Shown here piece by piece: positions 1,994 to 9,581 of a DNA stretch of 11,911 nucleotides. This DNA comes from Promethearchaeota archaeon (GTDB lineage Archaea > Asgardarchaeota > Lokiarchaeia > Sigyniarchaeales > SOKP01). The notes beneath the pieces were generated by a model. The model had not been told where the DNA came from. It did not search any database and worked only from the letters and a program-made list of their open reading frames with translations. The DNA is taken from the NCBI GenBank assembly GCA_048941265.1, contig JBHLNT010000127.1, forward strand, positions 1 through 11,911, in the 5' to 3' direction. A program made the translations under genes and the position numbers. Every line of letters begins with the position of its first letter. Within the stretch, counting starts at the first letter, position 1.

Positions 1994-3472
1994 TTGTTAA
2001 ATAATCATATCGTTGACTTGTTTCTTAATCCCAAATCTGTAGCGGTGATAGGCGCTTCGAAGAATCTAGTGAAAGGAGGCAACCGAATTGTTCATAACCT
2101 CACACTTAATAATTTTAAAGGAAAAATTTATCCTGTAAATCCTACTGCTAAAGGCGACATATACGGTTTAGAATTCAAGAAATCAGTTCTGGACATTGAA
2201 GAAGAAGTGGATCTTGCTATTTTTTACGTAGGCAATAGACTTATTCCGGGATTATTGGAAGAATGTATCAAAAAAGGAATTAAAGGGGCATTAATTGAAG
2301 CCTCGGGATTTGAAGAGGTAGGGAAAAAAGGTCTTGAACTTAGAGATAGGATTGTCGAAATCACAGACAATTTTTCAAAAATTAGAATTGTTGGACCAAA
2401 TTGCATGGGTCTCACGAAAATAGATGGAGACAGTAATAGTGAAGATAAGGGAGGATTTTTCTCTGGATTTGGGGTTTTTGAAAAATATAAAAGAGGGAAT
2501 ATCGCAATCGTCAGTCAATCAGGTATGCTGAACGGTGGATATCTTATGCATATAATGCAAAAATATCCCGAACTTGGTTTTAGATATTCATGTTCTATTG
2601 GAAACAAAATGGACTTAAGTGAAATAGAGTTTCTTGAATACTTTTTAGATGATCCAACCGTTAATGTTATAGCTGTATATTTGGAATCGTTCAGAGATCC
2701 GAGAAAGTTCATAGAATTAAGCAGAAAAGCAAAAAAAATTCCTAAAAAAACAATTATTTTAGTGAAAGGAGGTTTAACATCCCAAGGGCAAAAGGCAACA
2801 TTAAGCCATACTGGAGCTCTAGCAGAAAATTCACAACTACTCGAAGCTATAATCAAGCAATCGGGGGTAATACAAGCTAATAGCTTTGATGAACTATTTC
2901 AATTCGCTAGGACATTTTCAATGGTATACGAAACTGATAAAAAATTACCAAAAAAGGGTGGTGTCTCTACGATTGTAGGTTCGGGAGGGGCTGGTACGCT
3001 AATAGCAGATCTTACAATGAAATACGGATTACATCTTCCGATTTTAGGAGAAAAATCATATCAAGCGCTTGTAGAAGTCTTTCCTGAATGGATGCCTCCA
3101 AATAGATTTAGTCTCGTTGATATTTGGCCAGCTATGGAAAAAGCGATGATGGAGAGAAAAGGTCGAGATGAAGTTATGAAAGCCGCTTATGAAGCAGTAT
3201 TGAGTGAACCAGAAGTAGAAGGGCTCTTCAATATGATGTTTTGTTCTAGACGCTTTAGAAGCATGTGGAATATCCCGAATCTGATAAAAAATACTAAAAA
3301 GATTTCAAAACCGATTTTTTTCTATCTTATAGGAGAAGCTAAGGAAGTTCGGTATCTTTCAGAATTACTCGGAAATAGTAATATCCCATGCTTTACTGAG
3401 TTGGAAGATATGATTAAGAATTTCTGGATATTGGTTCAAGAAGCTAAAAACGATATAGTTAACCTAACCTAA
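1994..3472 (+). CDS. NDP-forming acetate/acyl-CoA ligase alpha-subunit-like protein, paralog 2
   Basis: Same motifs (PKSVAVIGAS, GPNCMG, SQSG, SHTGA), collinear with 374..1855. TTG start with SD-like GAGTGA at 1982-1987. Confidence 0.9.
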   Translation: MLNNHIVDLFLNPKSVAVIGASKNLVKGGNRIVHNLTLNNFKGKIYPVNPTAKGDIYGLEFKKSVLDIEEEVDLAIFYVGNRLIPGLLEECIKKGIKGALIEASGFEEVGKKGLELRDRIVEITDNFSKIRIVGPNCMGLTKIDGDSNSEDKGGFFSGFGVFEKYKRGNIAIVSQSGMLNGGYLMHIMQKYPELGFRYSCSIGNKMDLSEIEFLEYFLDDPTVNVIAVYLESFRDPRKFIELSRKAKKIPKKTIILVKGGLTSQGQKATLSHTGALAENSQLLEAIIKQSGVIQANSFDELFQFARTFSMVYETDKKLPKKGGVSTIVGSGGAGTLIADLTMKYGLHLPILGEKSYQALVEVFPEWMPPNRFSLVDIWPAMEKAMMERKGRDEVMKAAYEAVLSEPEVEGLFNMMFCSRRFRSMWNIPNLIKNTKKISKPIFFYLIGEAKEVRYLSELLGNSNIPCFTELEDMIKNFWILVQEAKNDIVNLT

Positions 3473-3678
3473 ATTTTTTAATACAAATTTAATTACTTGA
3501 TTTTTTAATTTGAAAAATAATAAAAAGAAAATTTCATTAAAGGTTTAATTCCTGCTATTTTGCTGCTATTTAAGGATTCTTTTTTTGCGACAATTTAATC
3601 TATACTTAAATAAATTAAAATGAAATTATTATTTTTATAACTCAGAAAATTGTTTGTAATAAATAATAAGTGATAATA

Positions 3679-4719
3679 ATGGGAAAACAACATGAAATAA
3701 CGGAATCATCGAATTTATTTAAAGAAGATGGTTCACTTGTTCAGCGAGGTTGGGCAAAAAAACCGCTAATAAGATATAACAAGGAAAATATTGGAAAAGG
3801 TTGGACTCGGATTAAAGAATGGGATCATTATTCAATATTAAATAAAGAATTTGGATTACAACTTACAATTGGGGATATAGGCTATTTAACTCAAATGAGT
3901 TATGTTTGGATTGATTTTAAAGAAAAAGCTAAAAATGGAAAAAGTGAGTTTAAATTTTTCACAAAATCTAAGCTTCTTCCCTTAAGTTCATTAGAAGATA
4001 GCATTATTGAATTCCCCTCTAAAAAATTCAAAGCTACTATAGAAAAAAAAGGAAATAATCGAATTTTGTCTATTGAAGATCCCTCTTTTTTGGATAAAGG
4101 AATAAAAGGATCCCTCTCTCTCTATGATAATCCTAAGTGGGATAATACCGTTGTCGTTACGGGATATCAAGAAGATCCCCGACTATTTTATTACAACCAT
4201 AAAATAAACATGATGCCTGCTACTGGAGAAATTAAGGTTGGGGAAAAAAACTATTCCTTTAAGCCTGAGAAGTCCTTTGGATTAATGGACTGGGGACGCG
4301 GCATTTGGCCTTATAGAACACACTGGTTATGGGCTTCGGCATGCGGAATGCTCAATGATGTACCCGTTGCTTTTAATTTAGGATACGGATTTGGAGCTGT
4401 AGGAAGTGAAGAAGGTGCAACTCATACGGAAAATATTGTGTTTTACGACGGAAAAGCTCATAAGATTGATGAGGTCACTTTCCATCATGAAAATCGTGAT
4501 CCCGAAAAACCCTGGAAGTTTACTAGCAACGACAATAGATTAAATTTGGTGTTAGAACCTATAATCCCTCATAAGGAAAAACTAAATTTCGGTTTAATTA
4601 ATCTCAATAGTTCTTTATTGCACGGTTTATATTCTGGAGTCATTGTATTAGATAATGGTGAAAAAATACACATAGATGAAATGTTAGGTCATGCTGAAGA
4701 TATTTATTGGAAATGGTAA
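3679..4719 (+). CDS. DUF2804 family protein
   Basis: GWAKKPLIRYN...RIKEWDHY, FYYNHKIN, MDWGRGIWPY.T.W.WAS, FNLGYGFG, TENIVFYDGKAHK, PWKFTS match my recollection of DUF2804. ATG 3679 preferred over GTG 3670 because that GTG is part of SD-like AAGTGA (3668-3673). Confidence 0.8.
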   Translation: MGKQHEITESSNLFKEDGSLVQRGWAKKPLIRYNKENIGKGWTRIKEWDHYSILNKEFGLQLTIGDIGYLTQMSYVWIDFKEKAKNGKSEFKFFTKSKLLPLSSLEDSIIEFPSKKFKATIEKKGNNRILSIEDPSFLDKGIKGSLSLYDNPKWDNTVVVTGYQEDPRLFYYNHKINMMPATGEIKVGEKNYSFKPEKSFGLMDWGRGIWPYRTHWLWASACGMLNDVPVAFNLGYGFGAVGSEEGATHTENIVFYDGKAHKIDEVTFHHENRDPEKPWKFTSNDNRLNLVLEPIIPHKEKLNFGLINLNSSLLHGLYSGVIVLDNGEKIHIDEMLGHAEDIYWKW

Positions 4720-4983: not shown

Positions 4984-5029
4984 TATATAAGATCAAACTT
5001 ATTCATTAAATATAAGTTGAAACTTATTC
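4984..5029. promoter_or_regulatory. TATA-like box overlapped by two tandem palindromic operators ATAAG-N6-CTTAT
   Basis: TATATAA 4984-4990; ATAAG-atcaaa-CTTAT 4987-5002; ATAAG-ttgaaa-CTTAT 5012-5027; both copies share flanks (T...TC). Confidence 0.6.
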
Positions 5030-5048: not shown

Positions 5049-5672
5049 ATGGAAACTAAAGCCAAATCAGAAGAAAATACATATCGGAGAAAAATAAAAA
5101 ATTTCAAGGGTTATAGTTATCCTCTTGATAGTTTAACAATCTCAATGATAGGGATTTTTGGTGCCCTAATATGTGTATTAACTATGCTCATTGCAGTTCC
5201 TATTCCTGCTACTCAGGGGTTCATTAATATTGGAGATGCTGGAGTCATGATTACGGGATTATTATTTGGTCCAATCATTGGAGGAATTGCAGGTGGAATC
5301 GGTTCAGCTTTGGCAGATATATTTTTAGGTTATACAATATATGCCCCTGCTACTTTAATAATTAAAGGTTTAGAGGGATTTATCGTCGGTTTAATTGCGA
5401 ATCCAAAAAAAAATTATAAAAAATTAACCTATAGAGACATTCTAGCTGTTGTTATTGGAGGAATGATCATGGTTTTTGGTTATTTAATCTATGAAACCCT
5501 AATCTTTGGCTTTCCTGTAGCCTTATATGAATTTATTTTGAATATTACTATACAATTTGGAGTAAGTGTCATAATTGCCATAATTTTTGCTAAGACTGTC
5601 CGAAGAAATATCATTGATAGCCTTCCTCAAGTATTCGATAAGATTTTTATAATAGAAATTAATGAAGATTAA
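5049..5672 (+). CDS. ECF transporter substrate-specific S component (COG4720-like; possibly PdxU/HmpT-type)
   Basis: Multi-TM protein with IPATQGFINIGDAG, LLFGP..GG.AGGIGSALADIFLGY.IYAP.TLIIKGLEG signature. Substrate uncertain. Confidence 0.85.
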   Translation: METKAKSEENTYRRKIKNFKGYSYPLDSLTISMIGIFGALICVLTMLIAVPIPATQGFINIGDAGVMITGLLFGPIIGGIAGGIGSALADIFLGYTIYAPATLIIKGLEGFIVGLIANPKKNYKKLTYRDILAVVIGGMIMVFGYLIYETLIFGFPVALYEFILNITIQFGVSVIIAIIFAKTVRRNIIDSLPQVFDKIFIIEINED

Positions 5673-5673
5673 T

Positions 5674-7110
5674 TCATAATAAAGTGATGAGAACGTCCAT
5701 AGCATCCAAAACTTTCTTCCCTTCTTCAGTTATAAAATATAAAACTTTTTTTCCCTCTTTTTTTCGATGTATCAATTTTTTTAATTCTAATTCTTTAAGA
5801 TGCTGATAAATGGCCGGTAAACTCACCGATCCTATTATTTCCTTAAGTTTAGTCCCATGAATTCCTTTTTTATTTGAAATAGAAATTTGAGATAATATTT
5901 TCAATTTGGTGCTGAGAATTCCACCCATTCCGGCAGTCTTTGCCTTGGAAGATAAGGCTTCTAACACATAGGGCGCTTTTAATCCACTTCCCGTAATTAA
6001 ACACACTACTTTATCATCAGGATTCATGTTATAATGTTGAATTAGGCTAGTTAGAGCTCCAATGGTTAAAGCTGACGCAGGTTCAGCAAAAATTCCCTCA
6101 TATCTTGCGAGGTCTCCTATAGAACTAAGCATTAAATTTTCAGGAATTGCTAATGCTGTTCCCTTACTCTCTTTTATTGCCTTTATAGCTGCTGCTTGAT
6201 ATAATGGATTTTTAACCATTATAGATCTTGCCTTAGATTGTAAAATATTTTTTTCCTCAATATTTCTGACCTCCTTATGAAGAAATTCATTTACAATTGG
6301 AGCACACACTTCCGATTGTACTCCAACTAGTTTTGGTATCTTTTCAATAAAACCTGATTCTTTGAGTTCTGAAAAACCTTTCCAAATACTAACAAGACAT
6401 CCACCATTCCCCATTGGAATTATAATCCAATCTGGAATGTTAATTTCCTTATAAATTTCAAAAGCTATCGTTTTTTGAGCTTCAATTGTAAGTGGATTGA
6501 ATTCGGGTGTGCATTGATAATAATCTTTATTATATTCAGGGGCTAATGCTGAATTTATAGCATCATCAATAGTATCACCCTCAATAATGATTTTAGAGTT
6601 ATAAGCAATAAGTTGAGCTTTTTTACCAATTTCAATTTCACTTGGAATAATATTTATACTTTCCATCCCTTCTAAAGAAGTATATGCTGCAATTGAAGCA
6701 CCTTGATTTCCATTTGAAGCACAGATTACTTTTTGAAAATCCCAGCTCCTAGCATGGGAAATTAAAAGAGCAGCTGCCCGATCTTTAAATGAATTAGTAG
6801 GATTATGCGTTTCATCTTTAAAAAATAGTTTATTTAACTCTAAGTTTTTGCCAATTCTATTTGATTCTCTACAAGGAGTTCCACCCTCTCCTAAAGTAAC
6901 AAAGAATTCTTTTTTTATTTGAGGCATTGTGAAATAAAAATCCCAAAATGAGTCATATTTTTTTATTGGAGAAAAATTTTCTTTTATTTTTGCTATATCG
7001 GTTTTAATCCAGAGTAAACCTCCACAATCTGAACATTTGTACTCAATTGAAGTGATTTCAAATTCTTTATTACAATTTATACATATGAATGTGAGTGAGG
7101 ATCGAATAAT
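5674..7110 (-). CDS. thrC: Zn-ribbon / threonine-synthase-like PLP enzyme (fold II) / C-terminal winged-HTH fusion; probable ATT start
   Basis: Core motifs TLGEGGTP, KDETHNPTNSFKDR (PLP Lys), PMGNGG, GVQS, EPASA, TGSGLK. Frame stays open upstream of ATG 6927 to TAA 7129-7131, encoding CINC...CSDCGG. C-terminus SLPAIYQHLKELELKKLI...VLYFITEEG is wHTH-like. Start position is inferred. Confidence 0.8.
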   Translation of the reverse strand: MIRSSLTFICINCNKEFEITSIEYKCSDCGGLLWIKTDIAKIKENFSPIKKYDSFWDFYFTMPQIKKEFFVTLGEGGTPCRESNRIGKNLELNKLFFKDETHNPTNSFKDRAAALLISHARSWDFQKVICASNGNQGASIAAYTSLEGMESINIIPSEIEIGKKAQLIAYNSKIIIEGDTIDDAINSALAPEYNKDYYQCTPEFNPLTIEAQKTIAFEIYKEINIPDWIIIPMGNGGCLVSIWKGFSELKESGFIEKIPKLVGVQSEVCAPIVNEFLHKEVRNIEEKNILQSKARSIMVKNPLYQAAAIKAIKESKGTALAIPENLMLSSIGDLARYEGIFAEPASALTIGALTSLIQHYNMNPDDKVVCLITGSGLKAPYVLEALSSKAKTAGMGGILSTKLKILSQISISNKKGIHGTKLKEIIGSVSLPAIYQHLKELELKKLIHRKKEGKKVLYFITEEGKKVLDAMDVLITLL

Positions 7111-7298
7111 TAAACTGCCTCTTAATTTTTATAAATCGAAAATGAAAAATAAAACATAATTTCTTTTCTTTATCAATTTTAAAAAAAACTTTTTTGACTT
7201 TTATATTTTTGACATTATAAAAATAAATACTGTATCTAAGTAAACTTCATAAAAAATATTTCATATATCTATTAAAAGAAAAGAACCATTGAAAAAAT

Positions 7299-7526: not shown

Positions 7527-8642
7527 TTATACTAAATCTTCAATAGACTCATATGTTAGATTAAATTCGTCAGCAATAGTTTTCAGAGTAATTTTCCCCT
7601 TATATAAATTTATACTTTTTCTTAATGGCTCCTTCATTCTTAAAGCATAAGATATATCTCCTTCAGAAATTAAATCTATGAGGAATGGAAATAGATTTTC
7701 GGATAAAGCTTCTGTAGCAGTTCTGGGATAAGCTCCTGGCATATTTGTAACGCAATAATGAATAATGCTTTCTTCCATATAGATGGGGTCTTCATGAGTG
7801 GTTGCTCTGCTTGTTTCAATACATCCGCCCTGATCAATAGAAATATCTATAATCACTGAACCAGGTTTCATTGTCTTTACCATTTCTCTAGAAATTATTC
7901 TTGGCGCTTTAGCGTTTGGTATCAATATAGTTCCAATGAGCAAATCTGCCAGTTTAACACATTCTTCTCGACTTCTTCGATGGGAGGTTGTTATTGTTAT
8001 ACCCTTAGGTAATGTGTCATTTAGGTATCTGATCCTTGAAATATTCTTCTCTAAAATTATAACATGGGCGCCTATTCCATTTGCAGTAAGAGCTGCACTC
8101 CTTCCGGCAGAGCCTCCACCCAAAATAACTACATAACCATGATAAATTCCAGCAGAGCCTCCTAATAATAGACCAGATCCCTTATTTTTTATAGATAAAA
8201 GATTAGATCCAATAAGGACTGCCATTCTTCCAGCAATTTCAGACATGGGCGTAAGAATCGGCATTTGACCGTTCTCTAGTCTTACGGATTCAAATGCCAA
8301 TGCTGTTGATTTACCATTAATTAACGCTCTAGTAAGTTCTTGATTTGCCGCCAAATGTAAAAATGAAAATAGAATAGGACCTGGATTAAAGAATTTTAAT
8401 TCTTCATTAATGGGCTCTTTAACCTTAACAATGATTTCTGAATCTGAATATACTTTTTGTTTTGAATTTATTATTTTTGCCCCAGTATTAAGATAATCCT
8501 CATCAGAAAAACCTGAATTCTTACCTGCGTTATGTTCTATAATAATTTTATGTCCCATTTGAATGAGATCTTCAACATTATTCGGAGTTAAGCTTACTCT
8601 TCCTTCTCCAATTTTAATTTCTTTTGGAATTCCTATAATCAT
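7527..8642 (-). CDS. ald: Alanine dehydrogenase (bacterial Ald / AlaDH-PNT family)
   Basis: [35 protein letters not shown], Rossmann [39 protein letters not shown]. Confidence 0.95.
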
Positions 8643-8882: not shown

Positions 8883-9581
8883 ATGAAAGTAATAGGTTTA
8901 TTAGGAGGAATGAGTTGGGAGTCATCTCTTGAATATTATAGAATTATAAATGAGATTGTGAAACAAAGATTGGGTGGGCTTCATTCTGCGAAATGCATTT
9001 TATATTCTGTGGATTTTGAAGAAATCGAAATTTTACAAAAAGAAGGTAAATGGGACAAGCTAACGAAAATTATGATTGAATCTGCTCAAAATTTGGAAAA
9101 TGCTGGAGCAGAAATGGTTTTAATTTGCACTAATACAATGCATAAAATGGCTAATGAAGTTCAAAATGCAATCCAAATTCCATTATTACATATAGCTGAT
9201 GCTACAGCTGAAAAAGTCAGAGAGAAAAATTTAAAAAAAGTGGGACTTCTAGGTACCAAATATACAATGGAACAAGATTTTTATAAAGGTAGAATAAAAG
9301 AAAAATATAATATCGATGTAATAATCCCAAATCCAGATGATAGAGAAATACTCCATGCGGTTATTTATAATGAACTTTGCCTAGGTCAAATAAATGAAGA
9401 TTCAAGAGATAAATGTAAAAAGATTATTGAAAATCTAATTAACAATGGAGCAGAAGGAGTTATTTTAGGTTGTACAGAAATACCACTCTTAATAAATCAA
9501 AAAGATTTTGCAATCCCCATATTTGATACAACTCTTATTCATTGCGTTGCTGCTGTTGAATATGCTTTGAGGATTGAATAA
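8883..9581 (+). CDS. Aspartate/glutamate racemase family protein (YgeA/RacX-like, PLP-independent)
   Basis: MKVIGLLGGMSWESS.EYYR.INE, LGGLHSA, ICTNTMHK, LLGTKYTME, ILGCTEIP, FDTT.IH. Confidence 0.93.
   Translation: MKVIGLLGGMSWESSLEYYRIINEIVKQRLGGLHSAKCILYSVDFEEIEILQKEGKWDKLTKIMIESAQNLENAGAEMVLICTNTMHKMANEVQNAIQIPLLHIADATAEKVREKNLKKVGLLGTKYTMEQDFYKGRIKEKYNIDVIIPNPDDREILHAVIYNELCLGQINEDSRDKCKKIIENLINNGAEGVILGCTEIPLLINQKDFAIPIFDTTLIHCVAAVEYALRIE

Follow-up and report, generated by a model that had tools for sequence, protein, structure and literature searches.

Two vitamin regulators of Archaea, RbkR and ThiR, join the fold of a vitamin-pathway enzyme to a helix-turn-helix and control the genes for synthesis and uptake of that same vitamin. 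Here we describe a gene of a Promethearchaeota archaeon (contig JBHLNT010000127.1, of which a stretch of 11,911 nucleotides (nt), called the window below, was analyzed) whose product combines an N-terminal zinc ribbon, a domain resembling the threonine synthase ThrC and a C-terminal winged helix-turn-helix (wHTH). Both the vitamin and the fold differ from those of RbkR and ThiR, and ThrC uses pyridoxal phosphate (PLP) and is not itself an enzyme of the vitamin B6 pathway. The gene most likely encodes a transcription regulator, not a threonine synthase, and we propose, with a probability of roughly 0.6, that the fused protein is a dimeric one-component regulator of B6 uptake, responsive to PLP or B6, and an archaeal analogue of PdxR.

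A sensor domain resembling a PLP enzyme and fused to a winged helix is also the design of the bacterial regulators PdxR, MocR, and GabR. Passages of PMC5320631 describe MocR proteins as having an N-terminal GntR-type wHTH and an aminotransferase-like domain of fold type I, and state that they are absent from Archaea; the PdxR regulons given there comprise pdxST, pdxK, and the transporter gene pdxU, and these are the same kinds of genes that adjoin the archaeal fusion family. The fused protein, in contrast, has a PLP domain of fold type II (PALP), a wHTH of PadR/ArsR type that is C-terminal, and an N-terminal zinc ribbon, and most members of its family lack the Schiff-base lysine. PdxR is an analogue of the archaeal family, not a homologue. 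Our literature search returned no paper on a ThrC–wHTH fusion or on an archaeal B6 regulator (the supplements of PMC9997740 and PMC5320631 may list archaeal candidates), and the parts of PMC2872624 and of an AmzR preprint that term searches reached hold nothing relevant to either.

An enzyme-like domain with a winged-helix tail

The domain assignments, family spread, lysine loss, gene neighborhoods, conserved palindrome, and dimer model reported here were all obtained by computation. Pfam places the central domain in PALP (E = 3.6e-62). The tail scores above the cut-off for the HxlR wHTH (25.3 versus 20.8 bits) and below that for PadR (18.9 versus 27 bits), and among 27 aligned homologues, 26 match PadR and 25 match HxlR at E ≤ 0.01. 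AlphaFold predicts a three-helix, two-strand winged helix (H-H-H-beta-beta-H), with a predicted local distance difference test (pLDDT) score of 86.5 for the tail alone and 83.8 for the full-length model, in which the enzyme domain is confident and residues 376–399 are disordered. At E ≤ 1e-3, Foldseek matched the tail to 31 PDB chains. Those listed are winged helices, nearly all of them from transcription regulators (including YgaV of the ArsR type, ArsR, SmtB, MarR-family, PadR-like, and HxlR regulators), and several were solved on DNA; for DNA-bound MepR, of the MarR family, the template modeling (TM) score is 0.76 and the root-mean-square deviation 1.1. The recognition helix carries an invariant YQH (Y435, Q436, H437), and across the 27 homologues conservation of the wHTH equals or exceeds that of the enzyme part. 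With PadR and ArsR/SmtB the tail shares both fold and sequence signature: ArsR 6j0e is its top PDB sequence match, the motifs YGYEIWK and YQHL...GLI...RKYY occur in relatives, and two relatives (L120 and L121) reach 43–47 bits for PadR. Those regulators are small stand-alone dimers, whereas here the module is the tail of a 478-residue protein whose dimerization is predicted to run through the enzyme-like domain. These results bear out the first-pass annotation of the window, which had read an ArsR/PadR-like wHTH at the C terminus, joined to the PLP domain by a glycine-rich linker.

That annotation had also held that the PLP-binding elements are kept and the substrate site is altered, and HMMER alignments to the ThrC structures 2zsj and 2d1f agree on both counts. 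SFKDR, EPASA, and TGSGLK are retained, and Lys109 aligns with the Schiff-base lysine of the two structures; ASTGNT has become ASNGNQ, NSVNP(Y/V)RIEGQKT has become PEFNPLTIEAQKT, and GNAGN has become GNGGC. The changed positions are reportedly those that in structures of Thermus ThrC hold the phosphate of O-phosphohomoserine, namely the T of ASTGNT, the N, S, and R of NSxNPxR, and the N of GNAGN, which in the fused protein are Q136, P202, E203, T208, and C238. Thus, where a loss of the phosphate-binding Arg and Asn-Ser had been claimed, the residue changes stand, and their role toward phosphate is what we presume. At the R position, 21 of 68 unfused proteins have Arg; in the 67 Lys-less fusions described below, Arg is not one of the five most frequent residues there. 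The altered site (ASNGNQG, TPE.NPLT.EAQK) is nearly invariant in homologues labeled Loki-, Thor-, Odin-, Heimdall-, Hod-, and Hermodarchaeota.

The best PDB matches of the whole protein are ThrC structures (E = 2.5e-51 to 2zsj). With the short zinc-ribbon or class I enzymes (2zsj, 2d1f, 1uim, 6cgq), it shares the fold, SFKDR, the glycine loop, EPASA, and TGSGLK; it differs from them in the added wHTH, in its place in a mostly Lys-less clade, and in a gene context of B6, not threonine. The NCBIfam model NF004170 (PRK05638, “threonine synthase,” an equivalog) has the same three-part architecture, and residues 16–477 align to its positions 4–441 of 442, at a score of 331 bits that lies below the cut-off of 421. 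A true member of this model, P0157 (799.6 bits), has SFRDR. Because this member is without the Schiff-base lysine, the label is doubtful; going by sequence, the family name is probably wrong, and Lys-less regulators probably receive it by mistake from annotation pipelines.

The genome (5.01 Mb, 91% complete) has three further thrC-type genes above the TIGR00260 cut-off, and the fused gene is therefore not its sole candidate threonine synthase. Two are class II copies of the E. coli type with 455 residues (238.8 and 236 bits); for L001, the one of the two that was compared with the PDB, the top match is E. coli ThrC 1vb3 (2e-74). The third, a paralogue of 426 residues, has a zinc ribbon and no winged helix (C262; L003, 1318–2598, plus strand). 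The first-pass annotation had advised looking for a second, canonical thrC and had named a sole ThrC with an intact site as the outcome that would speak against it; what the genome holds is two other thrC genes beside one with an altered site. As side observations, the 426-residue paralogue, which sits on a very long tree branch, has an altered site of its own (VSSGNVG; YNPFIIKGAKT), and similar genes lie 3′ of each 455-residue copy (L001, 2745–3692, and L002, 1903–2676, both on the plus strand, in C253 and C150), encoding by eye a small-GTPase P-loop (GLDxAGKTS) with a long C-terminal extension.

Modeled as a homodimer, the fused protein scored 0.52 against 0.00 for the best control; of proteins solved as pairs, 20 of 30 attain the mark for a dimer, and of those solved as single chains, 1 of 23 does. 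As solved ThrC dimers exist, the pass may reflect likeness to them. Contact agreement among runs was at least 69% and pLDDT at least 82. The predicted interface lies in the enzyme-like domain and includes residues 375–383, with residue 377 of both copies in contact, so that both linkers would exit near the symmetry axis, an arrangement that fits a palindromic site.

The N terminus of the protein depends on an unusual start. The frame is open from stop to stop over 5674..7128 on the minus strand (478 codons if counted from the ATT at 7110), and its earliest ATG, GTG, or TTG is at 6927; a start there is unlikely because it would cut off the Cys4 zinc ribbon, the cysteine columns of which are invariant in 27 of 27 aligned homologues. 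In all 12 loci of the window's subclade (L012–L018 and L036–L038 among them), an ATT or ATC stands 8 codons ahead of the first Cys, and in nine there is no in-frame ATG, GTG, or TTG between the upstream stop and the ribbon. Two more have as sole candidate a TTG 2 codons ahead of the first Cys, and the twelfth (L019) has an ATG 4 codons ahead of it, so that the ATT or ATC is the candidate start in 11 of the 12. Read by eye, the sequences of 11 of the 12 show GAGG 10 nt upstream of the ATT/ATC codon, and relatives outside the subclade (L045, L049, L024) have ATG at the same position. The likely start is the ATT at 7105–7107, the conserved position; the frame proposed at first is upheld, with its start moved from 7110, itself an ATT, to the next ATT. 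Because the start is non-canonical, public gene calls of close homologues (e.g. P0001 and P0003) are N-terminally truncated, beginning at internal methionines and missing the ribbon. In the tentative scenario given below, the Asgard clade would have switched from AUG to a conserved AUU or AUC, which would hint at translational control of the regulator's level.

Lysine loss and descent of the fusion family

A profile of 27 homologues was run against 1.84 billion cluster representatives, and the best 150 were inspected, giving 69 fusions and 68 unfused proteins once six proteins of 610–633 residues with another tail, P0133 with its frameshift-like tail, and fragments had been left out. Of the 68 unfused proteins, 67 keep the Schiff-base lysine; of the 69 fusions, two do, and in the remaining 67 its place is taken by L, R, I, V, M, or another residue. 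The PLP scaffold of these 67 is conserved to the same degree as that of the unfused enzymes (D110 in 67, R111 in 67, G134 in 66, N135 in 61, G234 in 63, G236 in 67, E343 in 66, T373 in 65, and G376 in 67). At the genome loci, all 43 complete unfused copies have the lysine, and the fused copies divide into 16 with lysine (three of them the window itself) and 44 with another residue, two more Arg-bearing copies being truncated by contig ends. The six long proteins (P0226, P0240, P0244, P0251, P0253, P0270) are ThrC-like and keep the lysine; we dropped them as candidates for lysine-bearing fusions because their C-terminal extension differs, some 200 residues that end in a shared “...SPDII.AS..AF...YN,” and dropped P0133 because its tail looks frameshifted.

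The closest 120 proteins all end in the same winged-helix sequence, and the named homologues among the closest (Promethearchaeota/Lokiarchaeota, Thor-, Odin-, Heimdall-, Hod-, and Hermodarchaeota labels) are 58–91% identical. Genome records extend the fusion to many Bathyarchaeia, Nitrososphaerota, Methanomethylicota, Desulfurococcales, and Thermococci in addition to Asgard, so that the survey of domain architecture called for at the outset finds one archaeal family across these lineages. Two trees of 78 rows, one built from all columns and one from the zinc ribbon and PLP domain minus the lysine column, both place all fusions in one clade (Shimodaira–Hasegawa-like approximate likelihood ratio test, 90 and 81), which argues for a single gain of the winged helix. 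In both, this clade splits in two. One group has hydrophobic substitutions of the lysine and comprises Thor, Nitrososphaerota, Methanomethylicota, and some Bathyarchaeia; the other (support 99) has Arg and comprises Asgard, Bathyarchaeia, the NF004170 type, and Desulfurococcales. P0157 clusters with a Thermococci copy. The lysine-bearing clade of the window (8 rows, support 97) lies within the Arg group as sister to an Arg-bearing Asgard copy, and a second lysine-bearing clade is nested in Arg-bearing Bathyarchaeia.

An approximately unbiased (AU) test (49 rows, LG+G4, the group having been named post hoc) rejected a single clade of all Lys-less fusions, with a log-likelihood difference of 101 and p-AU of 6e-5, and with it the idea that the lysine-bearing fusions are the basal, ancestral form. 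Judged from the sequences, the lysine would either have been regained twice or have been lost many times. Arg is encoded at this site by AGA or AGG in 28 of the 32 Arg-bearing fused loci and Lys by AAA or AAG, and the two residues are therefore one transition apart. A tentative scenario, possible in our view but not one to press, is that the family of B6 regulators arose once from ThrC and lost the lysine early, making PLP binding reversible, and that on two independent occasions, in the Asgard clade of the window and in one clade of Bathyarchaeia, a single AGR to AAR transition restored it, either as a covalent trap for PLP in B6 auxotrophs or as revived catalysis, the switch from AUG to AUU/AUC in the Asgard clade being part of the same history.

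Vitamin B6 genes and palindromes beside the fused gene

When the open reading frames (ORFs) around 60 fused loci were clustered, the only neighbor common across the family was a PF07155 S component of the energy-coupling factor (ECF) type, which adjoins the fused gene in 42 of them, usually at a spacing of no more than about 140 bp. Its arrangement varies: it is downstream and convergent in every one of the 13 loci that represent the window's clade (counting the window), downstream and co-oriented in Bathyarchaeia and some Asgard, and upstream and divergent in Thor, one Bathyarchaeia, and one Nitrososphaerota. The window's S component matches PF07155 at E = 3.4e-38, and its sole significant PDB match is 4hzu_S (E = 3.9e-20), HmpT/PdxU2 of Lactobacillus brevis. 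The substrate of HmpT/PdxU2 is identified as pyridoxamine in the portion of PMC4860826 that treats it, and the relevant portion of PMC9997740 counts PdxU and PdxU2/HmpT as the PF07155 members among three characterized prokaryotic B6 carriers. Three of the six residues named for the HmpT pocket (Tyr, Asn, and Gln) are identical in the window's protein.

A second tie to B6 is that pdxS-pdxT lie beside Lys-less fusions in four loci. The fusion heads an operon with pdxS-pdxT in L120, is divergent from them in L121 and in L092 of the Nitrososphaerales, and lies about 1.2 kb away in L122; the links in L120–L122 came from comparing the coordinates of PdxS and the fusion in 121 genomes of the phylum. 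Other neighbors (MCM, GINS, AIR-synthase-like, flavin reductase, NMO-like, ZIP, and DtxR-like) each occur in 10 or fewer of the 60 loci, and we set them aside as local synteny, since the loci are mostly close kin.

Loci of the window's clade carry a 7-2-7 palindrome, ATAAGTTnnAACTTAT, usually twice, ahead of the transporter gene. The window has two matches where 0.34 is expected (11 of 200 shuffles reach two), and no other perfect site or tandem pair occurs in the 5.01-Mb genome. When up to one mismatch is allowed, 12 distinct clade loci (87,628 nt) yield 16 matches, spread over 10 of the loci and all beginning from 10 nt inside to 73 nt upstream of the predicted transporter start; the other loci (925,301 nt) yield none. 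We considered a wider regulon in the genome, where seven more single sites with one mismatch occur, four in ORFs and three intergenic; none is paired, and we attribute them to chance. One lone palindrome with one mismatch (C321:7078) lies about 170 nt upstream of a gene for a 443-residue membrane protein, possibly also by chance.

Other branches have other sites. By eye, no operator shared by the Arg-type operons of Bathyarchaeia and Asgard was found. The hydrophobic-substitution group has a 12-nt palindrome of its own, CCTATATATAGG, which in nine loci (L055, L063, L067, L077, L057, L071, L058, L076, and L092; one each, at most one mismatch) precedes the fused gene by about 40 nt. It is present whether the divergent neighbor is the transporter, pdxST, or another gene, in Thor-, Bathy-, and Nitrososphaerota records alike, and a second TATA-like element precedes it. 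Candidate roles are an operator and a conserved bidirectional promoter, and it may be no more than a palindromic TATA region.

The supply of B6 in these organisms is consistent with a need for such control. Neither PdxS nor PdxJ was found in the window's genome at its 91% completeness, PdxT reached 22 bits, below the cut-off, and there are four genes of EcfT/CbiQ type. The organism appears, from its gene content, unable to make PLP, and its uptake of B6 must therefore be controlled. Of the 121 genomes sampled from the phylum, 23 were found to have PdxS (PF01680), 8 of them among the 52 with a completeness of at least 90%. It was found in none of the nine sampled genomes that carry the window's clade (completeness 91–100%), and the three PdxS-bearing genomes from the same family are without the fusion, a pattern among kin and not independent genomes that is suggestive and not a test.

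From these observations we infer DNA binding, PLP as effector, and the sign of the regulation, in the following way. The ThrC-derived domain would still bind PLP, in the window's protein through Lys109, having lost the site for O-phosphohomoserine, and a flexible linker would join it to the PadR/ArsR-like wHTH. Dimerization through a ThrC-type interface would set both wHTH domains near the two-fold axis, and the dimer would occupy the tandem ATAAGTTnnAACTTAT sites over the likely TATA box and start site of the HmpT/PdxU2-like gene, so that B6 uptake would be set by the cellular level of PLP or a B6 vitamer. Feedback logic suggests that the PLP-loaded form would repress and the empty form would free the DNA. 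Lys-less relatives in other archaea may likewise control the transporter gene or pdxS-pdxT. The features on which this proposal draws, and the flanking genes, are collected in Table 1.

Table 1. Positions of the fused gene, its parts, and nearby features in the window
Feature	Position	Strand	Remarks
Fused gene	5674..7110	-	Zinc ribbon + ThrC-like PLP domain + wHTH; stop TGA 5674-5676
RBS-like element (resembling a ribosome-binding site) and non-canonical start	7105..7121	-	GAGG 7118-7121, then ATT ATT 7105-7110
N-terminal Cys4 zinc ribbon	7024..7083	-	Cys10, 13, 26, 29; codons 7081-7083 to 7024-7026
ThrC-like fold-type-II PLP domain	5989..6900	-	Residues 71-374
Lys109	6784-6786	-	AAA; inside SFKDR
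PLP-domain motifs			ASNGNQG, residues 131-137; TPEFNPLTIEAQKT, residues 201-214; PMGNGGC loop, residues 232-238; TGSGLK, residues 373-378
Gly-rich flexible linker	5914..5985	-	Residues 376-399; AlphaFold pLDDT <50
C-terminal PadR/ArsR-like wHTH	5677..5913	-	Residues 400-478
Candidate operator site 1	4987..5002	+	ATAAGATCAAACTTAT, 1 mismatch to ATAAGTTnnAACTTAT; overlaps TATA-like AATATATAA
Candidate operator site 2	5012..5027	+	ATAAGTTGAAACTTAT, perfect palindrome; last base 22 nt before transporter ATG (5049)
PF07155 ECF-type S component, HmpT/PdxU2 (pyridoxamine) type	5049..5672	+	Convergent neighbor; proposed regulated gene
DUF2804 protein	3670-4719	+	Window flank
Alanine dehydrogenase	7527-8642	-	Window flank
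Asp/Glu racemase	8883-9581	+	Window flank

The flanking genes for alanine dehydrogenase, Asp/Glu racemase, and the DUF2804 protein are not conserved neighbors, each being found in one of the 60 loci. Also on the plus strand are two tandem paralogues of about 492 residues (374–1855 and 1994–3472) with CoA-binding and succinyl-CoA-ligase-like flavodoxin domains, of the type of the alpha part of ADP-forming acyl-CoA synthetases.

Competing explanations and biological meaning

The reading of the protein as an enzyme-derived sensor and regulator, first put forward from the sequence alone, gains support from the coherent family, the loss of the lysine with the scaffold kept, the B6 neighbors, and the palindrome. 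As its effector, PLP or an amino acid had been suggested; the context of pdxST and transporter favors PLP or B6, and an amino acid is not favored. Several observations nevertheless weigh against a B6 regulator. In the S component, one residue of the HmpT pocket is conservatively changed (Glu to Asp) and two are changed outright (His to Lys, Gln to Glu), and there are weak, sub-threshold NCBIfam matches to folate and riboflavin S components; because the pocket is only partly matched and these other matches exist, pyridoxamine is a candidate substrate. No S component adjoins 18 of the 60 fused loci, at least seven of which have a contig edge on one side and others of which have full flanks. PdxS and the fusion are both present in nine sampled genomes, and in six of these they are far apart or on different contigs. 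As to autoregulation, the region ahead of the regulator gene has, across the clade, no ATAAGTTnnAACTTAT-like site with fewer than two mismatches, the sole match there with fewer than four being an AT-rich string with two mismatches in L018. Lys109 of SFKDR is present in 116 of the 120 closest proteins, the other four being N-terminal fragments, and catalysis is thus possible; TIGR00260 is passed, narrowly, at 173.4 versus 167.1 bits. The merely presumed phosphate-holding roles of the altered residues and the kinship of the genomes behind the PdxS pattern count on the same side.

Because the window's clade keeps its lysine, some likelihood goes to a trigger enzyme, one that would regulate as proposed and also act on a substrate other than O-phosphohomoserine, such as a B6 vitamer or an amino acid, with turnover or occupancy as the signal. 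We think it rather unlikely. The clade has kept all motifs of the PLP scaffold along with Lys109, its enzyme domain is 58–91% identical across the Asgard lineages named above, and the near-invariance of the altered site among them is what a defined pocket should show, but a ligand pocket would show equal conservation; moreover, the nearest relatives are Lys-less and the clade is nested among them, which would require catalysis to have been regained or kept along a single line, and apart from the transporter no conserved enzyme partner or pathway gene stands beside the fused gene. Distinctly less probable still is a regulator with an effector other than B6, in which PLP would be a fixed cofactor and an amino acid would be sensed as its external aldimine, as in GabR, with the S component carrying that compound or another micronutrient. 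An amino acid would suit a ThrC-derived pocket, PF07155 includes riboflavin carriers, the window's S component has weak matches to riboflavin and folate models, and genes for alanine dehydrogenase and Asp/Glu racemase are nearby. Yet the latter two are seen in a single locus of 60, the Lys-less members keep the pocket though they can form no internal aldimine, and the pdxS-pdxT neighborhoods and the HmpT/PdxU2 match both indicate B6.

It is very improbable that the winged helix does not bind DNA and instead contacts protein or RNA, the palindromes belonging to another factor. Winged helices can mediate protein contacts, and YQH is invariant across phyla, with the next Leu nearly so, which is unusual for helices that read different operators; but ArsR-type DNA binders conserve the same position (in ArsR 6j0e, “shhl” stands opposite “yqhl”), almost every Foldseek match listed is a DNA-binding regulator, several having been solved on DNA, and the palindrome co-occurs strictly with the loci of this clade. 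Hardly credible, finally, is the database name taken at its word, a true threonine synthase with an appended domain that has no regulatory role. The end-to-end alignment to NF004170, the TIGR00260 score, and the ThrC structures that head the PDB matches all speak for it. Against these stand the SFRDR of P0157, which makes the name probably wrong for the family, the change of every position presumed to hold phosphate, the two E. coli-type thrC genes in the genome, and a wHTH no less conserved than the enzyme part.

A dimeric PLP- or B6-responsive regulator, if that is what the fused protein is, would fill the archaeal gap left by PdxR and MocR in Asgard, Bathyarchaeia, Nitrososphaerota, and others, and would be the first PLP domain of fold type II to serve as a transcriptional sensor. 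In the family as a whole, the loss and possible return of the lysine offer a clean case of the transition from enzyme to sensor. The “threonine synthase” of NF004170 covers proteins that are mostly unable to form a Schiff base with PLP, which calls for a correction in reconstructions of archaeal threonine synthesis. The distribution of PdxS, without which 98 of the 121 sampled genomes were found, suggests that many Asgard genomes rely on external, regulated uptake of B6, a dependence that bears on their syntrophic lifestyle and on the media used for their cultivation.

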